Assembly (NCBI GenBank): GCA_022448365.1
Contig: JAKVCS010000004.1
Location: forward strand, 544,458-608,457
DNA from: Saccharospirillaceae bacterium
Lineage (GTDB): Bacteria; Pseudomonadota; Gammaproteobacteria; Pseudomonadales; Oceanobacteraceae
DNA: 64,000 nt
Direction: 5' to 3'
In this document: positions 4,404-27,126 of the stretch, piece by piece
How the letters are laid out: every line of letters begins with the position of its first letter
Position numbering within the stretch: the first letter of the stretch is position 1
Program-made: the position numbers and the translations under genes
Notes under the pieces: model-generated
Database searches by the model: none
What the model was told of the DNA's origin: nothing
The model's input: only the letters and a program-made list of their open reading frames with translations

Positions 4404-5177
4404 TTACTTGTCATCGAAATAGCGGTAGCGGATATCCACTTGCTGTCCTTTCTGCTTATTATCCTGAAGATTGCTCAGACCACGATAACGCAGCAATCGC
4501 CTGGTTGAGCGCTGGTAATCGAGTTGAATCGGGTCGAGTAGCCAGGATAACAGGGAAGAGCGCAGAGTCATGGTAATTTTCAGCGGTTGCTGCAAGCGTT
4601 CTGGATTGCTGGCTTCGACCTCAAAGTTGACGCTGGTTTGGCGGGCAACGGAAGCAAAGCTGAACGGCACGGTTTGACCTTTCAGTAATGCATCCCAGTG
4701 TTTTCGGATAAAGTCATCAAAGCCGGCATCAATCACCAGCTCGTAATCGGCGTCATTGATCATACGGCTCTCACTGGCTCCATCTTCCTTCAACGTCAGG
4801 CGCCAGCCATCCGTCAGCTGTTCTGCTTGCTCGGCATAGTTGTGACGCAGGTCTTTGAGGATAAAATCTGGTTGGGTTGCCAGACCGCGATACTGATTGG
4901 TTTTTTCTGCAATCAGTTCGCCATCCGCTGAAAAGTACTCGACCCGGCGACTAATCGGGGTAACGCTACCGTCGTTATTACGACGCTGACTCAGGCTGTG
5001 CTGTTCCCGGTACAGCAATTTATCAGGTTGTTCCAGATCGTAAGCTTCACCGATGTAATCAACAGACTGTGTTTCTGCCCAAGCAACATTGACTGTTAAT
5101 GCCGACAGGGTGAAGGCTGCTATTCCTGACAGCGTGCGGAAGTTTATTCGAATCCGATTATCGTCGAACGACCTCAT
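4404..5177 (-). CDS. Exported conserved hypothetical protein
   Basis: 257 aa with a signal peptide (AAFTLSALTVNVAWA); 34 bp downstream of the DUF2878 gene on the same strand. Confidence 0.75.
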   Translation of the reverse strand: MRSFDDNRIRINFRTLSGIAAFTLSALTVNVAWAETQSVDYIGEAYDLEQPDKLLYREQHSLSQRRNNDGSVTPISRRVEYFSADGELIAEKTNQYRGLATQPDFILKDLRHNYAEQAEQLTDGWRLTLKEDGASESRMINDADYELVIDAGFDDFIRKHWDALLKGQTVPFSFASVARQTSVNFEVEASNPERLQQPLKITMTLRSSLLSWLLDPIQLDYQRSTRRLLRYRGLSNLQDNKQKGQQVDIRYRYFDDK

Positions 5178-5211
5178 TATGTTGCTCCGTGGTTACATCG
5201 TAGTGTGGGTA

Positions 5212-5805
5212 TCACAATGTTTGACCACGCTGCTGTTGATTTGGTTGCGCAGATACCCAAATCAGTAACGCTGCCCAAAACAGACTGATGGCAATCAAAG
5301 CTGCAGATGATGCCTCTACGGCACCAAATTTACTGCCAAGAAAATAACTCCAGGGTGCACCGGCAGCACCAAATAATGCAGCAATCCAATAGCGTTTCAG
5401 AAGCCCGGCGAGTGAATGGCGCAAGGTTGTAGCAAACGCCAGCCATAACGCCATTAACCAAAACGGGATAACAAACGATGAATGTTGTGGAAAAGACAAC
5501 CAGCCCAGATGAAATAACAGGGTGTCGAAGCCAATACCAACCGAGATGACCGGCAGGATCAGGCGGAACTCGTACTGTAAATCAGCCCGATCGACCACCC
5601 AACCGACATGCACAATCGCCAGCAGGATTAAACTTGCCAGCGCCCAGCTATCACCACCAATCACACAAGCTACCCAACACAGTTGAAACAGCACGGCATT
5701 GGCCAGAATCTTGGGCCAGTGATTGCCTTTGGTTGCGGCTGTCATTGTTTCTGAGACCACGGTGTGGTCTGACGTAGCCTGCGAGGTAGAGGTCGGGGTA
5801 TGCAT
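5212..5805 (-). CDS. DUF2878-family membrane protein
   Basis: NAVLFQLCWVACV, PFWLMALWLAFATTL and GAAGAPWSYFLG motifs; ATG 5805 lies 1 nt after the methyltransferase stop. Confidence 0.85.
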   Translation of the reverse strand: MHTPTSTSQATSDHTVVSETMTAATKGNHWPKILANAVLFQLCWVACVIGGDSWALASLILLAIVHVGWVVDRADLQYEFRLILPVISVGIGFDTLLFHLGWLSFPQHSSFVIPFWLMALWLAFATTLRHSLAGLLKRYWIAALFGAAGAPWSYFLGSKFGAVEASSAALIAISLFWAALLIWVSAQPNQQQRGQTL

Positions 5806-5806
5806 A

Positions 5807-7159
5807 TCAAGGCTCCCGGATCTCAGCTGCCAATGGCTGAGCAGACTCACCAGCCAGCACTGAATCTGCAACATTTCCCAGTACCGGTTTGCGACGGTTA
5901 TAAGGTTTGGCAAACATCAGTTGTACGTCACCAATAACCCGTTCGGCAAAGCCGCCTTCGCAATAGGCAAAATAGAAGTCCCATAAACGGATAAAGGTAT
6001 CGTCGTAGCCCAGTGCTTTGATTTGCTGTTCATTACTGAGGAAACGCTTACGCCATTCTGCCAGAGTGCGGGCATAGTGGGGTGTGATGTCTTCCATATG
6101 CGTCATTTTCATATCCGAAGCCTGAGTTACAGCGCTTTGTATTGCGGTGACGCAGGGAATAAAACTGCCGGGGAAAATGTAGCGTTTGATGAAATCGACT
6201 TCGGTTTTGGCTTGTTCATAGCGCTGGTCATCGATTGTAATGGCCTGGATTAAAGCCACACCGTCGGTTTTTAGCAGTGCGCTGCAAGCATCAATATAAG
6301 TGTTGAGGTAGTGATAGCCCACCGCTTCAATCATTTCGATCGAGACCAGCTTGTCGAATTGTCCGGCGCGTTCACTGGCTAATAGACGGTAGTCTTGTTT
6401 TAGCAGCGTAATTCTATCTTCCAGCCCCTGTTCTTTGACTTTGTTTTCCGCCCAGGCGTACTGCTCATCGGATATGGTTGTAGTGGTTACGCGACAGCCA
6501 TAGTGTTTAGCCGCATGAATCGCCATGGAACCCCAACCGGTTCCAATTTCCACCAGATGGTCTTCCGGTTTCAGGTCCAGTTTCTGGCAAATACGATCCA
6601 GCTTGTAAACCGACGCCTGCTCCATGGTGGCGTCTTCACTGGGGAATATGCCGCTGGAGTACATCATGGTTGGATCAAGGAATAATTCGAACATATCGTT
6701 GCCCAGGTCGTAGTGAGCCGCGATATTTCGCTTGGAGCCTTTTTCGGTATTTTTATTCAGCTGGTGAAAAAACTTCAGCGCAATCTTGCCGACGGTTGCC
6801 CAGCCACCATCAATTTGATCAACCACATCTTTATTTAACGCCAGCACCCGAATCACCATTGGCAGGTCCGGACTGCTCCAGTCGTGTGTCATGTACGCTT
6901 CACCAGCGCCAACACTGCCGTATAAAGCGATATTACGATAGGCTTCAAAATCATGAATATCGATTCGTGCGTTGTGTTGTTGATAAGGGCCTACACTCTC
7001 GGATTGACCAAAGCGATAAGTCTGATCACCTTCGGTAATAATTAATGATCCGGTATGCAGTTTTTCAAGCGTACTGAATAGTCCCTGGCGACACAGGCGA
7101 TCAAGCCAGTGTATGTTTTGGCTATCGGAAGCGAGTGTTTTAGCTGACGAAGTTTTCAT
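5807..7159 (-). CDS. cfa: Cfa-family SAM-dependent fatty acyl-phospholipid methyltransferase (UfaM-like)
   Basis: [45 protein letters not shown] and [14 protein letters not shown] motifs. Whether it makes cyclopropane or methyl-branched product is not resolvable from sequence. Confidence 0.9.
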
Positions 7160-8115
7160 AACATTGACTCCTTTTGATGCACCGCTTGGTCATCACTGGT
7201 CGGATTGGTAAAGTAGTTTTCAGGGTGCTTCTGACGAAACGTGTTTTCTGGCTGGTTTTGCGGGTGGTCATAAAAGGGCGAACGTTTTAACCAGAGTTTC
7301 AGCGCGTTCCAATAAATCCCGGCAAATACCTTGAGTGTCATCAGTGGATACTGGCGCAATACCCGGTTCATTGTCTGAGTGGTGAACGGTTCTGCACTCA
7401 GTCGCATGGTGGCATCAAATTCACGCTTCTCATCCGTGTAGTTTTCCATATGAATCAACAAATCATCACCGGGTTGCTGCATAACCCAGCGGTATTGCAT
7501 ATCTAATGGATTAAAGGGTGAAACATGGAAGCTTTTATTGAACTGATAATGATGCGCTGGCTGATTTTCCGGACCGCTGGTGGATACGGCAGCGATGGCC
7601 CTTCTGCCTTCGGCTTGTGAGGGTTGCAGTGTGTCCACACCAGGTTCCATTAACGTGTAATGAAATCGCTCGTCCCATGGGGTGTTAGTAATTTCTGCCA
7701 GCGTTCCTAGCAATTTCCCCTGATCGTCGTAGCAGTAATAAAAAGACACCGGGTTGATCAGGTAGCCAAAGTACCGCAAATTAGTCAGCAGTTTGACTTT
7801 ACTGGCTCTTAATCCGGTATCACGATAAAACTGATCAATCACCGCGTGTTTTAAATCAGCGCTGTCATAACTGCCATCCGAACCACTACCACGCTGTTGG
7901 CGGGTAATGGCGGCGGGTGTTGTTGCCGTAAAATAATCACGACGACGAAACTGTGCCGGAGCCCATCGCTGGGTGGACCAGAATGGCGAACGGCTGAAGA
8001 TGTCTTCCACGTCATCGAGATCAAGCAATACCATAAAAACCTGATAGGTAAATGCGTGACGCGCGCTGGTATGGCGACGATGACGAACCCAGCCTTTGTA
8101 TATGCAGCTGTCCAT
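7156..8115 (-). CDS. DUF1365-family protein (UfaO-like)
   Basis: [51 protein letters not shown] and [11 protein letters not shown] motifs. Confidence 0.9.
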
Positions 8116-9479
8116 CAGGCCACCTGAGTCTGCTCAGTATCGGTGTGACTGCTGTCGCTCTGGTTGTGATTTTTCAAATCAATACCAAACGACTGGCAGA
8201 CCCGAAGCGCGCTGTTGACTCCATCTTCATGGAAACCATTAAGCCAATATGCACCGCAAAAATGTGTGTGTTGCTGGTTGTTAATCCGGTGGTGATTTTT
8301 TTGAGCACGCATGCCTTCAAGAGTAAATACGGGATGAGCGTAGTTAAAAATCCGGATGATTTTATCCGGATTGATATCTTCCGTTTTATTTAATGTGACA
8401 CAGAAGTGCTCCGGGCAGTGATCAAAGTTTTGCAGACGATTCATATAGTAGGTTACTGCAACCGTTTCGCGATCGCTGTTATTTTCGTCGATGTGATAGT
8501 TCCATGCGGCCCAGGCTGCTTTACGTTTAGGCAGAATGGTTTGGTCGGTATGCAGCACCACTTCATTCATCTGATAGGGAATGGCCCCGAGTATTTGCTG
8601 TTCGCTGGTGGTGGCATCCGCCAACATTGATAAAGCCTGATCGCTGTGACAAGCAAAAATCACCTCGTCAAAGTGGCTGGATAATTCCTCGCCCTGTTTG
8701 CGGTAGCAAATCTCGACACCATTTGAATGACGGCTTACCTGAATGACGGGGGTACTCAGGTGAACCTGGTTGGTTGGTAACAAAGCTTCGATGGCTCGGA
8801 CATAAGAACGTGATCCGCCACTGATCACGCGCCATTGTGGACGATCATCAACGCTCAACATACCGTGGTTGTTAAAGAAGCGGACAAAGAAATACAGTGG
8901 AAATGACATCATCATTTCTTCACTGGCTGACCACACAGCGGCACCCATCGGGATAATGTAATAACGACGGAAATAATCGCCATACCGTTTGCGATTCAGA
9001 TAGCTGCCCAATGTCTCATTACGGTTGATATCATCGGCTGCAAGTTCGGCACGTGTCTCTTTATTAAAACGTAAGATATCACGCAGCATCAGCCAGAATT
9101 TTGGATTGAATAAGTTGGAGCGTTTGGCAAACAGCGCATTAAAATCGTGGCCGTTGTATTCCATGTCTTTTAATGGCGACTTTACGCTGAAGCTCATGTC
9201 TGAATCTTCACTGGCCACGCCCAGCTGATCCATCAGTTCGATAAAATTCGGATAGGTCCAGTCATTAAAAACGATAAATCCTGTGTTGACCGGATACATC
9301 TCTCCAGCGATATCGACATCGGTTGTTTGAGTATGACCACCCAGGTAATCGTTCGCCTCAAACAAATGCACATCATGCTTATGATTCAGCAAGTAAGCCG
9401 ATGTCAGTCCGGAAATACCAGAACCAATAATGGCAATTTTTTTACGACAAGCAGGGTTATCAGCAGTTGTTGGGTTCAT
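8115..9479 (-). CDS. FAD-dependent oxidoreductase, COG2907 amine-oxidase-like (UfaD-like)
   Basis: [32 protein letters not shown] and [13 protein letters not shown] motifs. Confidence 0.9.
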
Positions 9480-9494
9480 AGGGTTAGCCTCGTC

Positions 9495-10280
9495 TTAAGA
9501 TTGTCGTGCCATGGATTGGGTAATACGCATACGCAGACCAGCAGGCAGCGCCGCAATGAATTTCATAATCAGAGTGAACTTTTTCGGGAAATGAATTTCC
9601 CAGCGACGACTTTCGAGACCATTAATAATCTCTTCAGCCGCTTTCTCGGAGCTGATACGCATCGGCATCGGAAAGTCATTTTTATCAGTGAGCGGCGTTT
9701 TTACGAAGCCGGGGGCAATCACTGACACATCAATCTGTTGCGGAGCCAAATCGATTTTCATGGCTTCCAGAAAATGTGTAGTAGCCGCTTTGCTGGCGCC
9801 ATAAGCCTGAGCCCGACTCAGGGGTAACCAGGCTACGCTGGAACTCATGCCCACCAGATAACCACGCTGGCTATGTTTCAGCAGAGGTAATACGGCTTCA
9901 ACACAATTGGCCAGACCCACCAGATTGGTATTAATCACACGCTGAAATAACTGCGCATCAAACTGATTTACATCGACGTATTCGCAGGTACCTGCGTTGG
10001 CAATCAGCGTATCAAGGCGGCCATATTTGTGCTCAATTTCATTGGCTGCCTGATGCACAGACCAGTTGTCGGTAATATCCATTGGCAGACAAAGAATATT
10101 ATTGAATCCTGTGTCATTGCGTATTCGCTCCAGTGCTTCATGATTGCGGGCACTGATAACCAGTTGCTGGCATCGTTCTGCCAGGGGTTTTACCAAAGAT
10201 TCACCAATGCCCGAAGAGGCACCGGTTAGCCATATGACCTGTTTATTCAATGGTGGGGCTGTACGTTGTGTTGAGCTCAT
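9495..10280 (-). CDS. Short-chain dehydrogenase/reductase
   Basis: WLTGASSGIG, NAG and YGASK motifs; ATG 10280 overlaps the upstream stop (ATGA). Confidence 0.92.
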   Translation of the reverse strand: MSSTQRTAPPLNKQVIWLTGASSGIGESLVKPLAERCQQLVISARNHEALERIRNDTGFNNILCLPMDITDNWSVHQAANEIEHKYGRLDTLIANAGTCEYVDVNQFDAQLFQRVINTNLVGLANCVEAVLPLLKHSQRGYLVGMSSSVAWLPLSRAQAYGASKAATTHFLEAMKIDLAPQQIDVSVIAPGFVKTPLTDKNDFPMPMRISSEKAAEEIINGLESRRWEIHFPKKFTLIMKFIAALPAGLRMRITQSMARQS

Positions 10281-10708
10281 GACATGCGCTCCTTTAGTTT
10301 GCGAATTGCCCAACCGAGCAGCGGCAAGTGCTCGTACAGCATTTGTCCGCCATCAAAAAAATCACGGTGTTGGATAATTTTGTCGTTGCCCCATATCAAT
10401 TCACTGCCACCGTCGACGGTTACTGGCTTGCCGGAATTAATACGCGGGTGCTGATACACCATCTGCCAGCGAATAAAAGCGTGATTATCCTCCTGCCAGC
10501 AATGGCCAAACGTAAATTCAATACTCTCGACGTTTTCGTACATGGACACGAAATAACGTGTCATCGCTTCCAAACCATTTATGTTGTGAAACGGATCTTT
10601 AAACTGAATGGACTCACCATACACCGTGGCCAATGTAGTTTTGTCGACATTGCCACGTTGCAGCTGATGATAAAGGTTCTGAAACGCAGCAACTGCAGCA
10701 TCATTCAT
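10277..10708 (-). CDS. SnoaL-like / NTF2-family protein
   Basis: YGESIQFKDPFHNING, and HRDFFDGGQMLYEHLPLLG near the C-terminus. Confidence 0.9.
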   Translation of the reverse strand: MNDAAVAAFQNLYHQLQRGNVDKTTLATVYGESIQFKDPFHNINGLEAMTRYFVSMYENVESIEFTFGHCWQEDNHAFIRWQMVYQHPRINSGKPVTVDGGSELIWGNDKIIQHRDFFDGGQMLYEHLPLLGWAIRKLKERMS

Positions 10709-11646
10709 GATGACTCTCCGGTCTGGCGACCTTCAGCGAGAATGTGCTTTGGCACGGGATTCAGACTGTGAATAATGCCGAGCCAACTCATTACCTTGAG
10801 TACGTAGTAGGTAATGTCAATCTGCCACCAATAAAACCCCTGACGCGCGGATACCGCAAACCGGTGATGATTGTTGTGCCAGCCTTCACCCAGTGTCAGC
10901 AGTGCCAGGAAAGCGTTGTTACGACTTTGATCTTTGGTTTTGAAGCGTTTGGTCCCCCAGATATGGCCTAAAGAATTAATGGCGACAGTCGAGTGAAACA
11001 ACATCACGGTAGACACGAAAAATCCCCATATCACCAATTGAAAACCGTTGGTGTTTAAGCCGGGGGAAAAATAGGCAGCCAATTCCCCAGCCAGATACAG
11101 CAAAGCAATCAAGAGCAACGGTGCAAAGCTGTCGAAGCGATCCAGCCAGCGAAGTTCTGGAAAGCGGGAAAAATCTTTAATACGACGATACTGAGTTTTG
11201 AAGCTGGCATCACAGGTAAACCAACCGACATGGCTCCACCAGAAACCACGTTGTACGGGGGAGTGTAAATCGCCCTCTTTGTCAGAGTGCTGGTGGTGTG
11301 CCCGATGGTGCGCCGCCCACCACAATGGTCCGCGTTGTGCTGCCATATTGCCTAACAACGCAAAAATAAACTGCCAGAACCGATTGGTTTTATACGAGCG
11401 GTGGGAAAAGTAGCGGTGATAAAACGCGGTAATCGCAAACTGCCGCAACCAATATAATGCCAGGCAGGTAACAATCGCGGTGGTGCTGCTATCGATAAAA
11501 AAGGCCATCAGTGCCACGACATGGAGAGTAAGAAATGGAATAACTCTGACCCAATTAAATTGGGTTGAGTTCATTTCTTCCTGTTCTGCAGCGGTTGAAT
11601 CGAACCAGCGTACGACATTGCGCCAGGGGGATAATTTCGTGTCCAT
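10705..11646 (-). CDS. Acyl-CoA (delta-9-type) fatty acid desaturase
   Basis: Three His boxes (HRYFSH, HRAHH, HNNHH) plus GEGWHNNHH and hydrophobic helices. Confidence 0.92.
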   Translation of the reverse strand: MDTKLSPWRNVVRWFDSTAAEQEEMNSTQFNWVRVIPFLTLHVVALMAFFIDSSTTAIVTCLALYWLRQFAITAFYHRYFSHRSYKTNRFWQFIFALLGNMAAQRGPLWWAAHHRAHHQHSDKEGDLHSPVQRGFWWSHVGWFTCDASFKTQYRRIKDFSRFPELRWLDRFDSFAPLLLIALLYLAGELAAYFSPGLNTNGFQLVIWGFFVSTVMLFHSTVAINSLGHIWGTKRFKTKDQSRNNAFLALLTLGEGWHNNHHRFAVSARQGFYWWQIDITYYVLKVMSWLGIIHSLNPVPKHILAEGRQTGESS

Positions 11647-13208
11647 CAGGCTTTCTCACTGCTGACTGCGCCAGCTCCGGTTAGAGTAAATAAATCCGTT
11701 TCGGGCGTTGCCTCATCAACTCCTGGTTGGGTTAACAGGCCTTCACCTTTAAATGCTGCCAGTGCTCTTAATCGCGCGAATTTATGCTCTACAATTTCAT
11801 TGGCATAGCCACACTGACTGCGTTGAATGGCATTTGGCTGGTGTCTTGCTTTGATTGGTAATGTCGCCAGTTCAGGAACAAATTGCGCAATAAATTCACC
11901 ATCAGGATCGAACTTCTGAGATTGCGTAATTGGATTAAAAATACGGAAGTAAGGGGCACCATCGGCGCCGGTCGATGCGCTCCATTGCCAACCGCCGTTA
12001 TTAGAGGCCAGATCAAAATCCACCAGATGACTGGCAAACCAGCTTTCGCCCCAGCGCCAGTCAATCAGTAGATGTTTGGTCAGGAACATGGCGCTGATCA
12101 TCCGCAGACGATTATGCATCCAGCCTGTTTCCAGCAATTGACGTTGTGCCGCATCGACAATTGGGTAACCGGTTTTTCCCTGGCACCAGGCATCAAAATC
12201 AGTTTTGCTGTATCGCCACGGAACCGACTCTGTGTCTGGTTTGAATGCTTTGTGTTTGTTCAGGTCGGGAAAGGCTACCAGTAAATGACGGTAAAATTCA
12301 CGCCAGATAATTTCATTAATCCAACCGTTCAAACCGGGTTCACCGTCGGTCAGCATACAAGCATTCATCTGCCAGGCACTGTATAAACACTGGCGTCCAC
12401 TGAGTAAGCCGAGGCTGAGATAACAGGATAAGCGGCTGGTGGCTGGTTTTGCCGGAAAGTCTCGCCAATTGTGATAATCGCTCGCCCTTTGCTGTAAAAA
12501 GTTCTGCAATTGCTGATGCGCCAGTTCTTCATTAATTGGCCAGAGCGAATCGACTACTTCTTCTACGCCTGCTTCATCGCCCAGCTTCTCTGCGGAGATT
12601 TGCGATACAAGCAGGTTGACCGCAGTTTCGGCTTCTTTTGTTACAAAATGGTTAGACGTTATTTGGGCTGGTTTATTAAGCGGTGGCTGCTGAAACTGGG
12701 GGAAGTGTTGACACCAGGCTTTGCGGAAGGGGGAGTACACTTTAAACATCTGTTGTTGTTTATTGAGTACTTGCCCCGGAGGAATAATACACTGGTCGTG
12801 ATAACAGAACAGCTGAGGTGAAAAAGCTCGGTTATTATCAGCCCAATGATTCAGCGCCATGTCGCGATTGATTTCATTAATCTCGTATTCGTAATTAAAG
12901 TACAGCTGATCAATTTTAAGGTCGGTACAGAGCGTTTGCAGTGCTTGGGTGTTGTCGCTGAAAGTATCGCTGTCGATGATTAACAGCGGAATATTCAGTG
13001 CCTGAAGCTGTTGCTCAAGATGCTTCATCGCATTAATGGTAAGCTGAATCAGGCGGTCGCCCATACCATGCTGGCGCCACTGTTTGCGACAAATAAAACT
13101 GACCGCAATAACGTCGATATGCTGGCCATCATTCCCCTGGCACGCATGCCACAGGGCAGGATTGTCATGTACGCGCAAGTCACGGCGGAACCAAACCATG
13201 CGTTTCAT
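11646..13208 (-). CDS. phrB: Class I CPD DNA photolyase
   Basis: WFRRDLRVHDNPAL, TSRLSCYL, WINEIIWREFY, GWMHNRLRM and DFDLASNNGGWQW motifs. Confidence 0.93.
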   Translation of the reverse strand: MKRMVWFRRDLRVHDNPALWHACQGNDGQHIDVIAVSFICRKQWRQHGMGDRLIQLTINAMKHLEQQLQALNIPLLIIDSDTFSDNTQALQTLCTDLKIDQLYFNYEYEINEINRDMALNHWADNNRAFSPQLFCYHDQCIIPPGQVLNKQQQMFKVYSPFRKAWCQHFPQFQQPPLNKPAQITSNHFVTKEAETAVNLLVSQISAEKLGDEAGVEEVVDSLWPINEELAHQQLQNFLQQRASDYHNWRDFPAKPATSRLSCYLSLGLLSGRQCLYSAWQMNACMLTDGEPGLNGWINEIIWREFYRHLLVAFPDLNKHKAFKPDTESVPWRYSKTDFDAWCQGKTGYPIVDAAQRQLLETGWMHNRLRMISAMFLTKHLLIDWRWGESWFASHLVDFDLASNNGGWQWSASTGADGAPYFRIFNPITQSQKFDPDGEFIAQFVPELATLPIKARHQPNAIQRSQCGYANEIVEHKFARLRALAAFKGEGLLTQPGVDEATPETDLFTLTGAGAVSSEKA

Positions 13209-15104: not shown

Positions 15105-15117
15105 CTTCTCTACCTCG

Positions 15118-15220
15118 TTGTACATTGACGTTGTACATCTCTGTATAAGAAAAATTTAGCGGTATCAGGTTGTATCTGTCAAAGGTTTTGTACAAGAAAA
15201 GTGTAAAGTTGTATAAGAAA
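15118..15220 (-). promoter_or_regulatory. Sigma70-like promoter of the ybgA-merR-phrB operon with clustered TnnACA operator repeats
   Basis: Minus strand has TTGACA (15177-15182), an 18-bp spacer and TAAATT (15153-15158). TTTCTTRTACA occurs three times (plus-strand TGTA at 15142, 15189, 15210), with further TGTACA at 15119 and 15132. Confidence 0.65.
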
Positions 15221-15248
15221 TGGTTGTGGCTGCGAAAGATACGGATAT

Positions 15249-15286
15249 AAAAAAGCTGCACAGCCGAAGAGGGTGGCTGTGCAGCT
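15249..15286 (-). terminator. Rho-independent terminator after the small CbiX gene
   Basis: 12-bp stem AGCTGCACAGCC/GGCTGTGCAGCT followed by a U-run on the minus strand. Confidence 0.85.
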
Positions 15287-15328
15287 GAAAGCCATAGAGC
15301 GCTATCGACCGATCATACCGATCAGCAG

Positions 15329-16739: not shown

Positions 16740-16825
16740 TTGTACAACAAAATGTTAATTCTACATTGGCTGGCAAGTGTATCTTGATTTGTTGTATAGT
16801 CCAAATGTTGTATAACATTTGTATA
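16740..16825. promoter_or_regulatory. Divergent promoter region with TTGTAYA repeats and an inverted repeat
   Basis: TTGTACA at 16740; TTGTATA at 16792, 16808 and 16819 (last two 11 bp apart); AAATGTT-gtat-AACATTT at 16803-16820. Confidence 0.6.
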
Positions 16826-18673: not shown

Positions 18674-19588
18674 ATGAGTAAAACAATTCTGATTACCGGA
18701 GGAACCGGCTTTATCGGCCAGCGTCTGGTGGATGACTGGGTCACTGAAGGTCATCATGTTGTTGTTTATAGTCGTCGCCCTGAGTGGGTGAAGCGGCGTT
18801 GGGGAGGTCGTGTTGATGCGGCCTCTTCACTGGCGACGCTGAACCAGCGCTTTGACTGGCTGGTCAATCTGGCCGGTGAAGGCATTGCTGATAAACGCTG
18901 GAGTGATAAGCGCAAACAGCAGCTGCGCCAGTCTCGTATCGATCTCTCCAGAGATCTGTTGCAATGGGCAAAGGACAGTCGCCAAGCCTTTGATCTTGTA
19001 TTGTCGGGTTCCGCCATCGGTTTTTATGGCTCTCACCTGGATGACGAACAGCAGGGAGCCGGGTATACCGAACAATCGGCTAATGGCGCCGGTTTTGCCT
19101 CGCAGCTGTGCCGGGACTGGGAGACAGTCGCCCATGAATTTGAAACTCTGTGCGAGCGCCTGGTTATTTTACGAACCGGTGTGGTATTGGGACAACACGG
19201 CGGCATGCTAGCTCGGCTGTGGTTGCCATTCAGCCTCGCCTTGGGCGGTGTTATTGGCAGTGGTCAGCAAGTTCTTTCCTGGATTCATCTCGACGATTAT
19301 CGTCGTGCCGTGCATTTTATCAGTAACAACGCTGTAGCGGGGCCGGTCAATATGACTTCGCCACAGGCAGTCACTAACCGCCAATTCACCAAAACACTCG
19401 GACGGGTTATGTCACGCCCAACGATTGCTCCGATGCCGGGTTTTGTTGCGGAGATGTTGTTTGGTGAGATGTCGGAGTTGTTGCTTGAAGGCCAGCGAGT
19501 GTTACCTCAACAATTACTCAGTCAGGGTTTTGTGTACGACTATGCTGACATTCACGACGCTTTGCGGGAAATTCATACTCATTGGTGA
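18674..19588 (+). CDS. TIGR01777-family NAD-dependent epimerase/oxidoreductase (YfcH-like)
   Basis: ILITGGTGFIG, VNLAGEGIADKRWS, SGSAIGFYG, LRTGVVLG and LSWIHLDD motifs. Confidence 0.93.
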   Translation: MSKTILITGGTGFIGQRLVDDWVTEGHHVVVYSRRPEWVKRRWGGRVDAASSLATLNQRFDWLVNLAGEGIADKRWSDKRKQQLRQSRIDLSRDLLQWAKDSRQAFDLVLSGSAIGFYGSHLDDEQQGAGYTEQSANGAGFASQLCRDWETVAHEFETLCERLVILRTGVVLGQHGGMLARLWLPFSLALGGVIGSGQQVLSWIHLDDYRRAVHFISNNAVAGPVNMTSPQAVTNRQFTKTLGRVMSRPTIAPMPGFVAEMLFGEMSELLLEGQRVLPQQLLSQGFVYDYADIHDALREIHTHW

Positions 19589-19633
19589 TGGACCAAGCGC
19601 GTAAAGTGATTACAAGTCCAGTGACCGGTGACT

Positions 19634-20724: not shown

Positions 20725-20746
20725 ATCGTCTCGCAGATGACAATGA

Positions 20747-22273
20747 TCAGAATAATGTCATTTGCTGGGAATTGCTTTGACGATTACTCTTTGCTCGACG
20801 ACGGCTCTGCTTTTTTCGAGAGCCGTGTTTTTCCCCTATTTGATTAGCTTGTTGACGAAAGTCTGTGTCTCTTACGCTGTTAATAAATTGGCGTGCTGTT
20901 CGACACGCCTCACTGAAATCAACAAGTGGTGGTGGATAGTGCCTGCCCAGAACACAGCCTGATGACTGTTGCAGTTTTTCGGGCATCAACCAAGGTTGAT
21001 GAATCCAACTGTTGGGTACGTTGCGTAACTCCGGCAACCACTGACGAATAAACGTACCAGAGGGGTCCAGTTTCTGTGCCTGCAGAGTAGGGTTATAAAT
21101 CCTGGGGATATTAATGCCGGTTGTTCCGGCCTGCATTTGGGCTTGTGGATAATGAATACCGGGTTCGTAATCAACGAATAGCTGGGCCAGAAAGGGAGCG
21201 GTAACCTGCCAGGGAAGCCACAAAGGGTAACTGGCGACCGACATTAACATGGCGCGCATACGAAAGTTAATCCAGCCATGATGGTGTAAATAGCGCATAC
21301 ACGCGTCCACCATTGGCCAACCCGTATTACCGGTTTTCCAGGCTACCAACCACTGTGGATTATAATGCTGGCGTAATTCGTTATACGCAGAGTGCAGATT
21401 ACGCCACTCCATATCCGGTTGATCTTCCAGCTTTTGAATAAAATGGCAGTGCCACCAAAGGCGACTTTCAAAGGCTTTTAAACTGTTTTTCCAATAACGT
21501 GTGGGCTGCTTCTGATGAGCTAGCTGCACCGCAGTTAATACTTCGCGCATGCTCAAACAACCGTAGGCCAGATACGGGCTCAGTCGAGAGCACGCGTGTT
21601 CAGCAGAAATTGGAGAACTGATCGACGAACGATAAAATTCACCGCGTTGCTGCAGAAAACTGTTTAATAATGCCAGACCCTGTTGCCGCCCACCATGTTG
21701 GCGTCCCGGACAGGGCAGCTGCAGCTTGCCATAATCCTGATTTATTTCGGCCAGCGGTAATTTGCAATCTCCGGTAAAGGCATGCCAATTAATGGCACTT
21801 ATCGTGGAGTGATCAGTCGGTTGAACGGCTGGCTGCTGCATAAAACGTTGCCAGTTTTTTGCCCAATGATCACGTCCGGGGTTGGGTCGAAGTACACCGA
21901 ATTGCTGGTATTGTTGCCAGTTAATCTGATGTTGCCGACACCATGCAGCGACCTGGATATCACGCTGATAGGTCCAGTTATTGCCGGTTTCCTGGTGGCT
22001 GTGCAGAGTAAATTGTCCGAGTACAGTTTTTAACTGCGCTAATAACGGAACCACATTACCCTGAAATATCTGTAGGCGGCCATCCAGTTCGTTACTCAGA
22101 TCCTGTAACGATTCTCTGACAAATTGCCATTGCCGTACGCTGGTGTCGGCTAACTGCCAATAATCCGGTTCGAGACAATAAAATGCCAATACCGGTCCTG
22201 CTTGAGCTGCCTGATGAAGTGCCTGATGATCGGTACTGCGAAGATCTCGTTTAAACCAAACCAGTTGCAGCAT
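20747..22273 (-). CDS. Photolyase/cryptochrome-family protein of the Vibrio Cry2 / ssDNA-photolyase-like type
   Basis: LVWFKRDLR, SSPISAEHACSRLSPYL, GWINFRMRAML and DYEPGIHYPQAQMQAGTTGINIPRIYNP motifs. Confidence 0.85.
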   Translation of the reverse strand: MLQLVWFKRDLRSTDHQALHQAAQAGPVLAFYCLEPDYWQLADTSVRQWQFVRESLQDLSNELDGRLQIFQGNVVPLLAQLKTVLGQFTLHSHQETGNNWTYQRDIQVAAWCRQHQINWQQYQQFGVLRPNPGRDHWAKNWQRFMQQPAVQPTDHSTISAINWHAFTGDCKLPLAEINQDYGKLQLPCPGRQHGGRQQGLALLNSFLQQRGEFYRSSISSPISAEHACSRLSPYLAYGCLSMREVLTAVQLAHQKQPTRYWKNSLKAFESRLWWHCHFIQKLEDQPDMEWRNLHSAYNELRQHYNPQWLVAWKTGNTGWPMVDACMRYLHHHGWINFRMRAMLMSVASYPLWLPWQVTAPFLAQLFVDYEPGIHYPQAQMQAGTTGINIPRIYNPTLQAQKLDPSGTFIRQWLPELRNVPNSWIHQPWLMPEKLQQSSGCVLGRHYPPPLVDFSEACRTARQFINSVRDTDFRQQANQIGEKHGSRKKQSRRRAKSNRQSNSQQMTLF

Positions 22274-23708
22274 CTTTTTCGGTCGCTATCGGAGCTGGAT
22301 AATCGGGTAGCAGTTTATCGCCACGGCTATGCTGCTGAATATCTTTGAGACTGTATTGTGCTAACTTTGGCAGCCAGAGTTTGATATGAGTCAGCTCCGG
22401 ATCGTAATTCTGCAACTGGAAATTAATGTTGAAGATACGGCCTTTGCCCGGACTGCTTCTGGGGTCCTGGCCAACGCCTGCCAGATAGGCCCAATTTCCC
22501 CAATTACTGGCGACGTCATAATCCAGTAAATGTCGCTCGAAAAAAGCAGCACCCAGACGCCAGTCGAGCTTGAGATACTGAATAAAATAGCTGGCTAGAT
22601 TTTGTCGCATGCGATTAGAGCTGTAGCCGGTGGTTATTAACTCTTTGATACCTGCATCAATTAAAGGCACACCGGTCTCGGCCTTCACCCATTGCTGCCA
22701 GTGACTGGCATTAAATGGCGGGGGGGTGAGAGGTTCTTGTTTCAGCCCCTGGTAGCGAAAAAACTTACGGCCGTAAATTCGCATGCTCCAGTGAAAATAT
22801 TCACGCCACAGTAATTCTTGTTTAAACCATTGGCTGTGTTCATTTTCACCATGTTGTTGCTCCCAACGTTCGGTCTCATGCCAGACGTTGCGCACAGACA
22901 ATGCCCCCCATGCCAGGTGAGCGCTGAGTTGTGAGGAAAAATTTAATCCACACAGCTGATTGCGACTGTCTTTATAGTGCAACAGACCGCGCGCCTGCCA
23001 AAGGTACGATGACAGATGAGCAAGACCGGCGTTTTCGCCGCCAATCAGATTGAACGACTGCCCTGGGTCCTGGTTGGCGCTGTTAGCCGTGGTGTTAAAG
23101 TCATTGTGCCAGGGAATTGAAGGAATTCGTCCATCGAAGTGATCGGAAAGATGGCTGATGGTTACCGGCGGTTTTGGTGCATCGGGGGTGATGGATTGTT
23201 TTTCAATTTTTCGACGGAATGCACTGAAAGAGGTTGGCCAGCGTTCAAATAAATGACCGATCTGTTGTCCCTCGAACAACGTTTGGTTGTTATACAGCGT
23301 TAGCGCTATGTTCTGTTGCTCCAGCTGTTCCAGCCAATGACTCTCCTCTGGTGCTTGAGCATGTTGAGTAAATACCTGCTGCATACCTTGTTTTTTCCAG
23401 TCACGGAATAATTCAGCAGGCTGCTGATAAACCATTTTAAAATCGATGTTCTGCAGTGCCAGTTGCCGTTGTAAATCAATTAAGCAGGCACGCAAAAAAC
23501 GTGCTTTTGCCAGTCCAATCCGGCCGGTATCTGCTTTACACTGAGGCCGGACAGTTGAAGTAAAAGGTGTTTCTTCATCCACGTTAAGCCAGAACGGCGG
23601 CATAATGAAAACAACCCGCAATGGAAGTCCGGCTTGTTTGGCTAATGAAAACCCCGGGTTGTCGTTAAGACGCAAATCGTGACGTAACCAGATTACATTA
23701 AAATTCAT
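22251..23708 (-). CDS. Cryptochrome DASH
   Basis: WLRHDLRLNDN, GGENAGLAHLSSY, ELLWREYF, GYSSNRMRQNLAS and DYDVASNWGNWAYLAGVGQDPR motifs. Confidence 0.9.
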   Translation of the reverse strand: MNFNVIWLRHDLRLNDNPGFSLAKQAGLPLRVVFIMPPFWLNVDEETPFTSTVRPQCKADTGRIGLAKARFLRACLIDLQRQLALQNIDFKMVYQQPAELFRDWKKQGMQQVFTQHAQAPEESHWLEQLEQQNIALTLYNNQTLFEGQQIGHLFERWPTSFSAFRRKIEKQSITPDAPKPPVTISHLSDHFDGRIPSIPWHNDFNTTANSANQDPGQSFNLIGGENAGLAHLSSYLWQARGLLHYKDSRNQLCGLNFSSQLSAHLAWGALSVRNVWHETERWEQQHGENEHSQWFKQELLWREYFHWSMRIYGRKFFRYQGLKQEPLTPPPFNASHWQQWVKAETGVPLIDAGIKELITTGYSSNRMRQNLASYFIQYLKLDWRLGAAFFERHLLDYDVASNWGNWAYLAGVGQDPRSSPGKGRIFNINFQLQNYDPELTHIKLWLPKLAQYSLKDIQQHSRGDKLLPDYPAPIATEKDAATGLV

Positions 23709-23895
23709 CTTCGACCTGACCTGCCTGACATAAATTCGGTGTGACTGATTGAGTTTTTTGTTTCGATTTTCTGCGGCATGCGTCACTGCAATATTTCACT
23801 TCTTCCCAGCAACGAAGCCATTTTTTTCGCCAGGCAAAGGGTCGTTTGCATTGCTGACACATTTTCTCGGGTAGGTTTAATTTTTTATGAGCCAT
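23698..23895 (-). CDS. DUF2256-family small Cys-rich protein
   Basis: KKLNLPEKMCQQCKRPFAWRKKW...VKYCSDACR. Confidence 0.92.
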   Translation of the reverse strand: MAHKKLNLPEKMCQQCKRPFAWRKKWLRCWEEVKYCSDACRRKSKQKTQSVTPNLCQAGQVEDEF

Positions 23896-23897
23896 GG

Positions 23898-25427
23898 CTA
23901 AAGTGCCTCAATATGATCAAGAAGGTATTCGGCACGATTGATGATTGCCTGTTGTTTATCGTCGGCCATTTTTGCCCAGCTACGGTAGATCATGGCCATG
24001 CGTGGATTTTTCTCGAATTGTGGCCGATGCCTCTGAATAAAGTGCCAATACAGGCTGTTAAAAGGGCAGCTGTCTTCTTCGGTGGAAGTCTTTACGGAGT
24101 AACTGCAGTGTTTGCAGTAATCCGACATTTTATTAATGTAATTGCCTGATGCAGCATACGGTTTACTCGCCAGGCGACCACCGTCTGCATGCATTACCAT
24201 GCCCAGAGTATTCGGTAGTTCCACCCAGTCATACGCATCGGCATACACGGCCAGATACCAGTCGCAAACCTGCTGTGGCGTGATACCCGCCAGCAGTGAG
24301 AAATTGCCAGTGACCATCAAACGCTGAATATGATGGGCATAGGCATTACGAAAAGTATTTTCGAAACACTCGCTCATGCATTTCATACGCGTATTACCAT
24401 GCCAGAAATAGCCTGGCAGCTGGCGCTGGTTGTCCAGCTGATTTTGTTGTCCATAGTGCGGCATTAGCAGCCAGTAAATACCGCGTATATATTCACGCCA
24501 GCCAATGATCTGACGAATAAAGCCCTCTGCAGCGTTTAACGGAGCTTTGCCTTGCTGATAGGCCAGTTCCACTTGCTGGCAGACTTCCAGCGGTGTTAAT
24601 AAACCGCAATTCAGATAGGGTGAAATCAGGCTGTGGAATAAGGTGTGTTCCCCCATGACCATGGCGTCTTGATAATCGCCGTAATGTGGCAACCGATATT
24701 GAACAAAATGGCTGAGTTCGGCCAGTGCCTGCTCCCGGGTTGTGGCCCAGCTAAAGTGCTCCAGAGTACCGGGGTGTTGGGAAAACTCCTGTTCGACCAG
24801 CGCCATCACCTCGCGATCAATGTCATCGTGTTGGTGACAAATACGGGGAACGAGGGCCACCTCTCCTTTGTAGCGTTTGCGGTTATCCTGATCGAAATTC
24901 CATTGGCCTCCGCAGGGTTCGTCCTGCTCCATCAGTAGCCCGGTTTTGCGACGCATCTCACGGTAAAAGTACTCCATCCGCAGCTGCTTACGGCCGCTGG
25001 CCCAGTCACGGAATTCTTCCTGGGAGCTTATAAAGCGATCATCCTGATAACTTTCGACGGCCAGAGACAACTGATTCTGCCAATCTTCGTCGATGGTTTG
25101 TTGCAACCTGTACTCACCGCATTCAGTCACGACTACGGCCTCGATGTCGTGCTCAAAACAAACGGCTTGTATAACTTCTATCAACCGTGTGTGAGCGCTG
25201 TCTGACTGATATTTATGGTAATGAACACGCCATCCGGCTGCCTCGAGTTGCCTGCTGAAGTGTCGCATTGCACTGAACAACAGCGCTATTTTCTGCTTAT
25301 GATGAGGGACATATTGTGCTTCTTCGGCGACCTCGGCCATGACCAGCATGTCCTGCTCAGGATTCAGTGCCCGGAGACTGGCGAGGTTGGTTGTCAGTTG
25401 ATCAGCAAGTATCAGCCCAAGCTTCAT
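23898..25427 (-). CDS. Prokaryotic (6-4) photolyase / FeS-BCP (CryPro; Agrobacterium PhrB / Rhodobacter CryB type)
   Basis: LILADQL, HHKQKIALLFSAMRHF, LRMEYFYREMR, YAHHIQRLM and KPYAASGNYINKMSDYCKHC...CPFNSLYW, with the four 4Fe-4S Cys positions present. Confidence 0.93.
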   Translation of the reverse strand: MKLGLILADQLTTNLASLRALNPEQDMLVMAEVAEEAQYVPHHKQKIALLFSAMRHFSRQLEAAGWRVHYHKYQSDSAHTRLIEVIQAVCFEHDIEAVVVTECGEYRLQQTIDEDWQNQLSLAVESYQDDRFISSQEEFRDWASGRKQLRMEYFYREMRRKTGLLMEQDEPCGGQWNFDQDNRKRYKGEVALVPRICHQHDDIDREVMALVEQEFSQHPGTLEHFSWATTREQALAELSHFVQYRLPHYGDYQDAMVMGEHTLFHSLISPYLNCGLLTPLEVCQQVELAYQQGKAPLNAAEGFIRQIIGWREYIRGIYWLLMPHYGQQNQLDNQRQLPGYFWHGNTRMKCMSECFENTFRNAYAHHIQRLMVTGNFSLLAGITPQQVCDWYLAVYADAYDWVELPNTLGMVMHADGGRLASKPYAASGNYINKMSDYCKHCSYSVKTSTEEDSCPFNSLYWHFIQRHRPQFEKNPRMAMIYRSWAKMADDKQQAIINRAEYLLDHIEAL

Positions 25428-25447
25428 AACTCACTCTTGTATTAATG

Positions 25448-25486
25448 ATGTATAGGTAATGTATAGGTATTGGCTTTTTTAGTCCA
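25448..25486 (-). promoter_or_regulatory. Promoter of the cryptochrome/photolyase operon overlapped by a perfect 11-bp tandem repeat
   Basis: (ATGTATAGGTA)x2 at 25448-25469; minus strand has TGGACT (25481-25486), a 17-bp spacer and TACATT (25458-25463). Confidence 0.7.
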
Positions 25487-25596
25487 GAGTCCTGCGTCTG
25501 AGTCACCCTCTTTGTGATGGTGAAACTGTCCTTCCTGATAAATTTGACTTTTATCTATGACAGCCGGGCAGTAACCTAACGCCGTGATGATGAGAG

Positions 25597-27126
25597 GTGA
25601 CTATGTCTGAAGAAGTTCTGATAATTGCAGCCTATGGCGTGTTGGCGTTGCTTGGTGCGCTGGCCATTTTTCTACTGGCCACTCTGCTATGGCTGGTCAT
25701 GGCGTATTTGGTCGATGTAACCCAAACCCGTCATACCGTGAGACGGAATTTTCCGGTTATTGGTCGATTTCGTTATTTCTTTGAACATCTGGGGGAATTT
25801 TTCCGCCAGTATTTTTTTGCCATGGACCGTGAGGAAATGCCTTTCAACCGAGCTGAGCGTGGCTGGGCTTATAAAGCGGCCAAAAAGGTGAACACCACCG
25901 TCGCTTTTGGTTCCACCCGTCGACTGGATTTACCGGGTACCGTGTTGTTTGTGAACAGTCCATTCCCGGCATTAAAAAAGACATTTGCGGAACCGGCGGA
26001 AATCACTATTGGTGAAAACTGTAGGCATCCTTACACCACCAAGTCGCTGATTAATATTTCCGGGATGAGTTATGGTGCGCTGTCGAAACCGGCGGTTCGG
26101 GCATTGTCTCACGGTGCAAAACAAGCAGGTTGCTGGATCAACAGTGGTGAAGGTGGAGTTTCGCCTTATCACCTGGAGAGTGGCTGTGATCTGGTGGCCC
26201 AGATTGGTACCGCCAAATACGGTGTGCGTACGCCGCTGGGTGAACTGGACGAGGGGAAATTAGCCACCATTGCCGCCCATGAGCAGGTACGCATGTTTGA
26301 GATTAAATTGAGCCAGGGGGCAAAACCCGGTAAAGGTGGAATGTTACCGGGTGCTAAAGTCTCTGCTGAGATTGCGGCTATCCGCGGCATTCCCGAAGGC
26401 GAGGACTCCATCAGCCCGAACGGTCATCCGGATATCCGCTCGGTGGATGATTTGCTGGACATGATTGCCCGGCTGCGCGCGTTAACCGGTAAACCTGTGG
26501 GTTTTAAAACAGTACTCGGCGGCATGGATTGGATTCGCGACTTGTGTCACGAAATTATGCTGCGGGGCATTGACTCTGCGCCTGATTTTATCACGCTTGA
26601 CGGCGCCGAAGGTGGAACCGGTGCGGCACCACAGCCGCTGATGGATTATATGGGGCTGCCTTTAAATCAGGCGTTACCTATGTTGATCGATACGTTGGAT
26701 GAATTTAATTTGCGCCCGCGTATTCGTGTGATTGCCTCGGGTAAGTTGATTAATCCAGATCGGGTTGCCTGGGCTTTGTGTACGGGGGCGGACTTTGTCG
26801 TTTCGGCCCGTGGTTTTATGTTTGCGTTGGGTTGTATCCAGGCACTGCAGTGCAACTCGAATACCTGTCCGACCGGTATTACGACACACGACCCTAAATT
26901 GCAGAACGGCCTGGTGGTTAACGATAAGGCGCGTCGCGTCGCACAATACGTTGACTCCATGATTCAGGAGGTTGGGGTGATTGCGCATTCCTGCGGTGTT
27001 GATGAACCTCGTCGCTTGAAACGCACTCATGCCCGCATGGTTCAGCCCAGCGGTGCTGCCGTGTTGCTGTCGGATTTATACGCCAGTCACGATTTTCGAC
27101 CGGATGGCGACTTTCGTCATGGTTGA
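25597..27126 (+). CDS. FMN-binding glutamate-synthase-family protein (stand-alone COG0069 type, N-terminal membrane anchor)
   Basis: ISGMSYGALS, NSGEGG, EIKLSQGAKPGKGG, PVGFK, DGAEGGTGAAP and GCIQALQCNSNTCPTGITT motifs. Confidence 0.93.
   Translation: MTMSEEVLIIAAYGVLALLGALAIFLLATLLWLVMAYLVDVTQTRHTVRRNFPVIGRFRYFFEHLGEFFRQYFFAMDREEMPFNRAERGWAYKAAKKVNTTVAFGSTRRLDLPGTVLFVNSPFPALKKTFAEPAEITIGENCRHPYTTKSLINISGMSYGALSKPAVRALSHGAKQAGCWINSGEGGVSPYHLESGCDLVAQIGTAKYGVRTPLGELDEGKLATIAAHEQVRMFEIKLSQGAKPGKGGMLPGAKVSAEIAAIRGIPEGEDSISPNGHPDIRSVDDLLDMIARLRALTGKPVGFKTVLGGMDWIRDLCHEIMLRGIDSAPDFITLDGAEGGTGAAPQPLMDYMGLPLNQALPMLIDTLDEFNLRPRIRVIASGKLINPDRVAWALCTGADFVVSARGFMFALGCIQALQCNSNTCPTGITTHDPKLQNGLVVNDKARRVAQYVDSMIQEVGVIAHSCGVDEPRRLKRTHARMVQPSGAAVLLSDLYASHDFRPDGDFRHG

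Follow-up and report, generated by a model that had tools for sequence, protein, structure and literature searches.

A 23-kb Gene Block of a Marine Bacterioplanoides as a Probable Class II LitR/Short-LOV Blue-Light Regulon

Class II LitR proteins of Pseudomonas are transcriptional regulators that do not depend on vitamin B12 (PMC9758184). The PplR regulon of P. putida comprises 19 genes, including phrB, ufaM, cryB, and folE, and the pmlR1 region of P. mendocina has the gene order PME6650 (rudS)-pmlR1-phrB-SDR-FAD oxidoreductase-ufaM, with cryB nearby (PMC9758184). PmlR2 represses the promoter of the rudS homologue via TGTACA sequences at -35 and in the stretch from the transcription start to the ATG, and biochemical work on P. 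mendocina showed that PmSB-LOV, when activated by blue light, binds the helix-turn-helix domain and frees PmlR2 from DNA (PMC9758184). The location of rudS within LitR light operons was also noted in a paper on the RudS family (PMC11417400). Light- and LitR-dependent control of the rudS-litR-phrB-SDR-FAD oxidoreductase-ufaM operon and of cryB is already in print (PMC9758184, PMC11417400). Here we describe a block of about 23 kb in the genome (3.9 Mb) of a marine Bacterioplanoides (family f1), lying in a window of 64,000 nucleotides, i.e., the whole stretch of DNA that was analyzed (contig JAKVCS010000004.1, positions 544,458 to 608,457). The block was studied by Pfam and NCBIfam domain searches, sequence matches to the PDB, genome-wide motif counts, and comparison with the loci of relatives. 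We put at roughly 70% the probability that it is the Bacterioplanoides version of the class II LitR/short-LOV blue-light regulon.

A sequence-only reading of the window had divided the block into four units, i.e., (i) a long rudS (ybgA) operon, (ii) a renalase-like gene with cbiX, (iii) an acyl-CoA dehydrogenase gene with a TIGR01777 (YfcH) gene, and (iv) an operon of photolyase-family genes led by one of FeS-BCP type. This account of the gene content was borne out by the domain and family searches. The lead operon is the same as in the Pseudomonas systems, i.e., PplR1-3 with the PpSB-LOVs in P. putida and PmlR1, PmlR2, and PmSB-LOV in P. mendocina, where cryB also belongs to the regulon. In both Pseudomonas and Bacterioplanoides there are at least two LitR paralogues with near-identical helix-turn-helix domains, the regulator lacks B12 motifs, and a short LOV gene adjoins one of the paralogues. 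In both, a sigma-70 promoter near to consensus has TGTACA or TGTATA hexamers at its -35 and again between transcription start and ATG. Unlike in Pseudomonas, all the units here are gathered in one 23-kb block, and the spacing of the repeats is N5 or N14-16 in direct orientation, as against N12 in the Pseudomonas-like families of the order. There are also extra predicted members, i.e., Cry-DASH, a divergent photolyase-family protein, the acyl-CoA dehydrogenase/YfcH pair, CbiX, a glutathione peroxidase, a SutA-like protein, and a DUF6482 protein. The repeat spacing, the gathering into one block, and the predicted membership of all of these except the DUF6482 protein are specific to the family. 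No folE/folM unit like that of the Pseudomonas regulon turned up here, no search having been aimed at folE/folM.

The combined architecture had been thought possibly undescribed. That idea did not survive the comparison: the core (rudS-litR-phrB-ufa, with cryB) has been published for Pseudomonas, and a renalase-like neighbor is common in the order. In a survey of 250 genomes of the order, LitR homologues were present in 44, and these homologues, which were compared in place of the named PplR and PmlR proteins, showed 31-41% identity. When 25 of the LitR loci (L079-L103) were examined, many had rudS-litR-phrB, often with a renalase-like gene alongside, whereas CbiX and TIGR01777 genes occurred once each. 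Because the core is published and a renalase-like gene stands beside rudS or litR in many genomes of the order, neither the first three proposed layers of defense (DNA repair, protective lipids, and removal of tRNA 4-thiouridine) nor the presence of the renalase-like gene is new. The system belongs to a known kind, the class II LitR/short-LOV regulon, and is not a new architecture.

The regulator encoded in unit i, LitR1 (P0001; 13208..14137, minus strand; 309 amino acids), is a predicted MerR/CarH-family repressor lacking the B12-binding residues. It matched PF13411 at 1.7e-19, and its best match in the PDB was CarH (5c8d). A profile built from 12 orthologues of the family aligned with CarH at 1.5e-21 over 222 positions, from the DNA-binding domain across the four-helix bundle into the beginning of the Rossmann domain. 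CarH and the other class I LitR proteins of Thermus, Myxococcus, and Bacillus are adenosylcobalamin-dependent photoreceptor-repressors, and share with LitR1 a homologous DNA-binding domain, the four-helix bundle, and a Rossmann-like C-terminus. Homology over about 220 residues might suggest that LitR1 alone is both photoreceptor and repressor, i.e., an adenosylcobalamin sensor of CarH type, with the LOV protein being irrelevant and the idea of a single regulator correct. The CarH geometry of the operators (see below), the presence of B12 uptake and cob genes in the same window, and a faint trace of a B12-binding domain (PF02310, E = 0.096; PF02607 gave no match to LitR1) would fit with this. 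However, the cobalt-ligand His of the CarH motif GERHEIG faces Ala in the LitR1 profile, the next Gly faces Glu, and Wx9EH is not conserved, so that LitR1 would not itself be a B12 photoreceptor. In addition, the class II LitRs of Pseudomonas are independent of B12, and the pair formed by LOV and a second LitR, described next, co-occurs perfectly with LitR1. We consider it very improbable that LitR1 acts alone. Given the missing His ligand and Wx9EH, and with no significant match to a B12 domain, LitR1 is, on its sequence, a B12-independent CarH homologue, as in class II LitR, and the earlier assignment of the MerR protein of the operon to this type held up. A further difference from class I is that the predicted targets are DNA-repair, lipid, and tRNA genes rather than carotenoid genes.

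Control of the whole region had been ascribed to one regulator. Instead, there are two LitR paralogues, together with a short LOV protein encoded beside the second. LitR2 is encoded on another contig (G000:C23:1153315-1154241), and its recognition region matches that of LitR1 (TGVN..TLRAWERRY...P.RT.KGHR.Y), the recognition helices being near-identical. Divergent from litR2 is the short LOV gene (C23:1152686-1153141), whose product of 151 amino acids contains the adduct cysteine motif DCRFLQ and is about 70% identical to the short LOV proteins of Pseudomonas (2.9e-54 to 7r5n; another match was 3sw1, i.e., PpSB1-LOV). LitR1, LitR2, and LOV occurred together in exactly 16 of 41 relatives, LOV being absent from the other 25, and the LOV gene stood beside litR2 in 16/16 genomes. 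The litR2 promoter has a conserved hexamer in the spacer between -35 and -10 in this genome and in 12 of 15 relatives; in the three relatives of genus g4 a pair lies just 3' of the -10 instead. These hexamers suggest feedback on litR2. Four features that mark class II LitR systems were found together, i.e., a helix-turn-helix of the CarH kind, a four-helix-bundle region without a B12 motif, the operon context, and a LOV gene beside the paralogue.

The same TGTAYA repeats (i.e., TnnACA) had been reported at four promoters of the block. The repeats were confirmed, but since units ii and iii have one divergent promoter in common, there are three operator regions rather than four. The promoter of the rudS operon, P-rudS (15153..15182, minus strand), has the sequence TTGACA-N18-TAAATT and was one of the two top promoter-like matches (10 of 12) in positions 4000-23900. 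A promoter so near to consensus fits repression and not activation. An upstream operator pair (15189..15215, minus strand) abuts the -35, with hexamers at 15189 and 15210 that are 21 bp apart. A downstream operator (15119..15147, minus strand) lies between the -10 and the start codon, with hexamers at 15119 and 15142 forming a pair 23 bp apart and an extra site at 15132. The arrangement recurs in 16 genomes whose LitR1 proteins are 46-92% identical, in which two TRTACA pairs bracket the TTGAC -35 of P-rudS, one (20 bp) just 5' of TTGAC and the other (22-23 bp) with its end in the gap that separates the ribosome-binding site from the ATG.

The second region (16741..16825, unstranded) is shared by the divergent renalase-like and dehydrogenase genes. 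It has a TGTACA at 16741, 20 nt from the renalase start, and direct repeats at 16793, 16809, and 16820, of which those at 16809 and 16820 are 11 bp apart. The single site and the pair TGTATAAC-NNN-TGTATAG were kept in 10/10 relatives, with the second hexamer degenerate in two. The third region (25438..25465, minus strand) comprises three tandem 11-bp direct repeats at 25438 (degenerate), 25449, and 25460, placed 11-33 nt upstream of the start of the FeS-BCP gene. At this promoter, relatives G003, G002, and G011 had exact 11-bp pairs, while those in G001, G004, and G008 were degenerate; the pair persisted in every relative with the gene. The operator layout was kept while the adjacent intergenic DNA diverged. 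CarH operators are tandem 11-bp direct repeats (nnnnTnnACAn), and a dimer arranged head to tail touches DR1 and DR3, which are 22 bp from each other (PMC9304148). The repeats at 25438/25449/25460 and at 16809/16820 conform to this pattern, and contacts 11 and 22 bp apart are a feature that the block would share with class I CarH. The proposal that the units have operators in common was thus sustained, in that sites of LitR/CarH type are conserved at orthologous promoters across genera, and sequence comparison supports their assignment to this type.

Over the window as a whole TGTAYA was not enriched, with 49 matches (36 distinct positions) as against 52 expected. The three promoter regions, about 515 bp in total, hold 11 of these 36 positions, as against about 0.3 expected. 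Only four clusters of at least three sites were found in the whole 3.9-Mb genome, two of them in the block. The repeats are direct and recur with a phase of 11 or about 22 bp. At a separation of 11 bp, the genome has nine pairs on the same strand (about 0.5 expected), and no other spacing between 6 and 40 bp gave more than three. Among relatives, the mean number of TGTAYA-N5-TGTAYA copies was 6.3 where LitR and LOV are present (16 genomes) and 1.1 in the other 25, while a control with the reversed pattern had a mean of 0.4 in the 16. The LexA (SOS) box was tried as an identity for the promoter repeats of the block and rejected, as CTGT-N8-ACAG did not fit them. Elsewhere in the window, ATACAGTACTGTACAAATAACCAGTA at 36773-36792 resembles a LexA box and not a LitR site, and accounts for one TGTAYA pair outside the block. 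A site upstream of uvrD (C34:357051) was SOS-box-like, and was excluded as a LitR site.

These counts bear on the possibility that only the rudS-litR-phrB-ufa operon is controlled by LitR, the other units being syntenic neighbors whose repeats are meaningless AT-rich promoter sequence. The lack of enrichment across the window agrees with this, as does the variation in repeat spacing between promoters, and in Vibrio cholerae it is ChrR-sigmaE, rather than MerR, that controls the ufa and cry genes. However, the TGTATAAC-NNN-TGTATAG pairs keep both sequence and position across several genera while their flanks diverge, and the same pair recurs at unlinked genes for a glutathione peroxidase and a SutA-like protein. 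The nine 11-bp pairs against 0.5 expected, and their six-fold enrichment only in genomes with LitR and LOV, also argue against it. Restriction of LitR control to unit i therefore seems to us unlikely.

The spacing of the repeats differs between lineages. In the order-level loci, P-rudS has TGTACA/TATACA pairs at N12 (N13 in L080-L082), some of them clearly inverted (TATACA-N12-TGTATA), whereas in the family of the window the P-rudS pairs are N14 and N16 and direct. The spacing of the operators appears to have shifted along with the regulator lineage.

The gene classes of the block are under different control in other bacteria. In V. cholerae, VCA0055-0058 (ybgA-merR-phr) is repressed by its own MerR, and a ufa-like cluster, cry, and acyl-CoA dehydrogenase genes are induced by blue light (PMC5241685). 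Deletion of merR (VCA0056) made this orthologous operon constitutive: VCA0055-57 gave about 50 reads in darkness with merR in place and, without it, about 4600 under either condition (PMC5241685 supplement). The V. cholerae ufa and cry genes depend on ChrR-sigmaE, while here, where no ChrR was detected, the same gene classes bear repeats of LitR type. Blue light induces the acyl-CoA dehydrogenase genes VC1740 and VC2231 without any need for ChrR (PMC5241685), which offers some precedent for unit iii. The sigmaE-ChrR regulon of Rhodobacter sphaeroides (phrA, ufaM, RSP1091-1087; PMC7380195) follows the same effector logic, i.e., a photolyase with UfaD, UfaO, and CFA-synthase-like proteins, but its regulator is an extracytoplasmic function (ECF) sigma factor with an anti-sigma factor, rather than the repressor and LOV anti-repressor predicted here.

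It might be argued from these precedents that the block responds to singlet oxygen or other reactive oxygen species through another regulator, either similar to ChrR-sigmaE or a TGTAYA-binding protein of some other kind, and not to light through LOV and LitR. In Rhodobacter and V. cholerae, the sigmaE-ChrR regulon does include orthologous ufa/cfa and cry genes (PMC7380195, PMC5241685), and a glutathione peroxidase gene in the present genome bears the same repeats. However, the best score in this genome for ChrR (TIGR02451) was 30 bits, against a cut-off of 124.5, and matches to the sigmaE-type promoter TGATC-N16-20-CGTA were at chance level, with none at a relevant position, so that control of the block by sigmaE/ChrR was rejected. 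The repeats are not LexA boxes, and across genomes the motif goes with LitR and LOV. We regard such a response through another regulator, in place of light, as quite improbable.

We return to control by LitR and LOV, for which the following scheme can be proposed. In the dark, oligomers of LitR1 and/or LitR2 would bind the direct TnnACA (TGTAYA) repeats. These, spaced 11 or about 22 bp apart, lie beside or across sigma-70 promoters that would otherwise be strong, at rudS, at the renalase/dehydrogenase region, and at FeS-BCP. Blue light would generate a cysteinyl adduct with flavin mononucleotide (FMN) in the short LOV protein, and the lit LOV would bind the LitR helix-turn-helix and free LitR from DNA, derepressing all the units together. 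As litR1 is itself inside the induced operon, we propose that repression is reset once the light ends. The induced products would include four photolyase-family enzymes, RudS to remove 4-thiouridine from tRNA, and a furan/methyl-branched fatty-acid pathway. With these would come a renalase-type flavoprotein and small CbiX chelatase, and a FadE-type acyl-CoA dehydrogenase and YfcH. Induction would also reach genes outside the block, for a glutathione peroxidase of the periplasm, a SutA-like protein that binds RNA polymerase, and a DUF6482 protein. The layout of shared operators comes from the sequence and its comparison among relatives, and membership of the units in one regulon is well supported by comparative genomics. 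The protein steps are modeled on the work in P. mendocina and V. cholerae, and from these precedents we infer the assignment of paralogues to promoters, the contact between LOV and LitR, and the response to light.

Several observations weigh against this scheme. The spacing here, N5 (11 bp) or N14-16 (20-23 bp) and direct, departs from the site defined experimentally for PplR1 and PmlR2, T(G/A)TACA-N12-TGTA(C/T)A; the sole N12 pair, 15171/15189, has a degenerate TGTATC. Binding by the LitRs of this genome is to that extent an extrapolation. As far as sequence tells, either paralogue might bind a given promoter, and LOV may or may not act on LitR1. The difference in pair counts between genomes with and without LitR and LOV gave p = 3e-7 by the Mann-Whitney test, for genomes that are not phylogenetically independent. 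Contigs from marine metatranscriptomes show units i-iv to be transcribed at a low level, in data that carry no contrast between light and dark. Finally, it is a guess that the dehydrogenase and YfcH, the renalase and CbiX, and the divergent member of the photolyase family act in photoprotection.

Unit i occupies positions 15125 to 4404 of the minus strand, and its adjacent genes overlap or are no more than 34 nt apart. It begins with rudS/ybgA (14127..15125, minus strand), whose product of 332 amino acids has TudS (PF04463) fused to DUF1722 (PF08349) in a single protein, the arrangement that defines RudS, and is predicted to remove the 4-thiouridine modification of tRNA. After litR1 comes phrB (11646..13208, minus strand), encoding a class I photolyase of the cyclobutane pyrimidine dimer (CPD) type (NCBIfam PRK10674, 514 bits against a cut-off of 506). 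The lipid-modification genes that follow (5212..11646, minus strand; assigned by Pfam) encode a membrane fatty-acid desaturase, SnoaL, SDR, UfaD-like, UfaO-like, UfaM-like, and DUF2878 proteins, in an order kept in 10/10 relatives. Among them, the three families of the furan fatty-acid pathway are encoded in adjacent genes, i.e., a UfaD-like FAD oxidoreductase of amine-oxidase type (PF01593; 8115-9479, minus strand), a UfaO-like DUF1365 protein (PF07103; 7156-8115, minus strand), and a CFA-synthase/UfaM-like methylase (PF02353; 5807-7159, minus strand). The functions of UfaD and UfaO have been established in Rhodobacter (PMC7380195), and unit i is predicted to encode a furan/methyl-branched fatty-acid pathway composed of UfaD/UfaO/UfaM-like proteins and accessory gene products.

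The last tightly linked gene of unit i (4404..5177, minus strand) encodes an exported protein of 257 amino acids with an N-terminus like a signal peptide; it had no match in Pfam or NCBIfam and was syntenic in 10/10 relatives. The tight coupling described in the sequence-only reading held up. The operon may run on to 2232. Beyond a gap of 81 nt, in which no stem-loop was seen by eye, lies a gene (2232..4322, minus strand) for an outer-membrane barrel-like protein of 696 amino acids with weak TonB-dependent-receptor/BtuB-like similarity in residues 417-639 and no Pfam match. Its position was kept in 10/10 relatives, and the operon may include it as a 12th gene, whose product is perhaps the outer-membrane partner of the 257-residue exported protein.

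In unit ii, the renalase-like FAD oxidoreductase (15728..16720, minus strand; 330 amino acids) matched PDB entry 3kkj at 5e-68 and the bacterial renalase 4zcc at 2.1e-66. Its true start is at 16720, as against the ATG at 16864 of the longest open reading frame. The cbiX gene, 15 nt downstream, encodes a small class II chelatase of CbiX type (15329..15712, minus strand; 127 amino acids; PF01903; 1.7e-20 to 3lyh). A fourth layer of defense, in which this chelatase quenches free tetrapyrroles, had been suggested, but nothing beyond the CbiX fold assignment speaks for it. On the 3' side of cbiX (approximately 15246..15288, minus strand), a stem-loop followed by a T-run, CAGCTGCACAGCC...GGCTGTGCAGC then TTTTTT, was read by eye rather than by folding and was not listed by a terminator scan; it would set unit ii apart from the rudS promoter. 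In unit iii, the FadE-type acyl-CoA dehydrogenase (16863..18632, plus strand, with its true start at 16863; 589 amino acids; assigned by Pfam, and 1.6e-204 to 8pns) is followed by a TIGR01777/YfcH-family oxidoreductase (18674..19588, plus strand; 324 bits against a cut-off of 207), and a metatranscriptome contig (18325-18722) bridges their junction.

Downstream of unit iii is orf109 (19878-20207; 109 amino acids), which had no match in Pfam or NCBIfam. Its product was 100% identical in G003, where neighboring genes are about 90% identical, and 68-97% identical across genera. Within the region 19589-20207, orf109 has a leader of about 200 nt with the conserved blocks GACTGTAGTTTTGTGTTA, CTAAACCTAAAG, and ACAGGTTTA, and a stem-loop and T-run on its 3' side. 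A scan of 15100-27400 against Rfam gave only a sub-threshold RyhB-like match at a terminator, and the leader matched no family. It may be a structured 5' untranslated region or the site of another regulator.

All four genes of unit iv overlap, and are translationally coupled throughout. The first encodes an FeS-BCP/CryB-type (6-4) photolyase-family protein (23898..25427, minus strand; PF04244; 2e-164 to 4dja and 1.4e-163 to 3zxs). An open reading frame overlapping both neighbors (23698..23895, minus strand) encodes a Cys-rich protein of 65 amino acids, which we presume from the look of its sequence, and not from a Pfam search, to be DUF2256-like. Next is Cry-DASH (22251..23708, minus strand; TIGR02765, 357 bits against a cut-off of 317), which likely starts at the ATG at 23708 and not at the GTG at 23786. 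The last is a divergent cryptochrome/photolyase-family protein of 508 amino acids (20747..22273, minus strand), assigned by a Pfam family match. It scored below every NCBIfam class cut-off, and its best E-values in the PDB (about 1e-37) were even across DASH proteins, cryptochromes of plants and animals, and class I photolyases. Perhaps it represents an uncharacterized bacterial subfamily of the cryptochrome/photolyase family.

The trio of photolyase genes is inside the block in the four relatives of the same genus and in G011, while in G008 it lies about 5 kb beyond orf109, within the 40-kb neighborhood. Genes for a Glu_synthase-domain (FMN) protein (25597-27126) and a DUF6482 protein (20380-20724) always accompany the block, and come directly after orf109 in relatives without the trio. 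The intergenic region between the FeS-BCP and Glu_synthase genes has a conserved element of its own, AAACTGTC.TTCCTGA...TTGACTTTTATC, which is unlike the LitR repeats. A search with LitR1 for the locus returned two loci, both from Bacterioplanoides. The gene order from the barrel-like gene (2232) to the Glu_synthase-domain gene was kept in 10/10 relatives of the family. The block had been drawn to end at 27126, a boundary that takes in the Glu_synthase-domain gene without evidence of an operator.

Nor is the predicted regulon confined to the block, as conserved sites also occur elsewhere in the genome. An exact 11-bp pair upstream of the periplasmic glutathione peroxidase gene (C23:570788-571374) was kept in about 12-13 of 16 genomes. 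Another, upstream of the SutA-like gene (C23:24668-24877), was kept in about 8-9 of the 10 genomes with the gene, which is preceded by three TATACA repeats at spacings of 11 and 22 bp. The SutA-like protein has 69 amino acids and the SutA RNA-polymerase-binding domain (PF20661), making it a candidate for a light-regulated RNA-polymerase accessory factor. A third exact pair lies upstream of a paralogue (C1:344894-345196) of the DUF6482 gene at 20380-20724, a site found in this genome only. Scans allowing one mismatch yielded a weaker candidate, a DUF3833 lipoprotein, and also picked out bacterioferritin, ubiD/DUF423, sdhC/gltA, and DUF4397-like genes. None of these was validated by conservation beyond the genus, and none is claimed as a member.

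We propose, tentatively, and as something possible rather than probable, that the LitR/LOV system of this lineage changed its mode of DNA binding, from N12 pairs to head-to-tail arrays of 11/22 bp resembling those of CarH, and took over the whole photo-oxidative stress program that is run by ChrR-sigmaE in Vibrio and Rhodobacter. If this were true, effector classes not yet linked to light would join the regulon, i.e., a renalase that mends damaged isomers of NAD(P)H, paired with a minimal CbiX chelatase; a FadE-type dehydrogenase together with YfcH; a glutathione peroxidase of the periplasm; and the DUF6482 and SutA-like proteins. In the case of the SutA-like protein, light would directly tune the transcription machinery.

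If confirmed, the block would represent a LitR/LOV regulon that is both compact and strongly predicted, in marine heterotrophs of high abundance, i.e., Bacterioplanoides and neighboring genera. It would provide candidate light-induced genes of unknown role, i.e., those for renalase/CbiX, acyl-CoA dehydrogenase/YfcH, the divergent photolyase-family protein, DUF6482, DUF2878, the SutA-like protein, and orf109. For a family of repressors used in optogenetics, it would also allow operator geometries to be compared as they occur in nature, N12 in one case and 11-bp direct repeats in the other. The same effector genes would then be governed by a repressor/LOV circuit in one lineage and by an ECF sigma factor in others.

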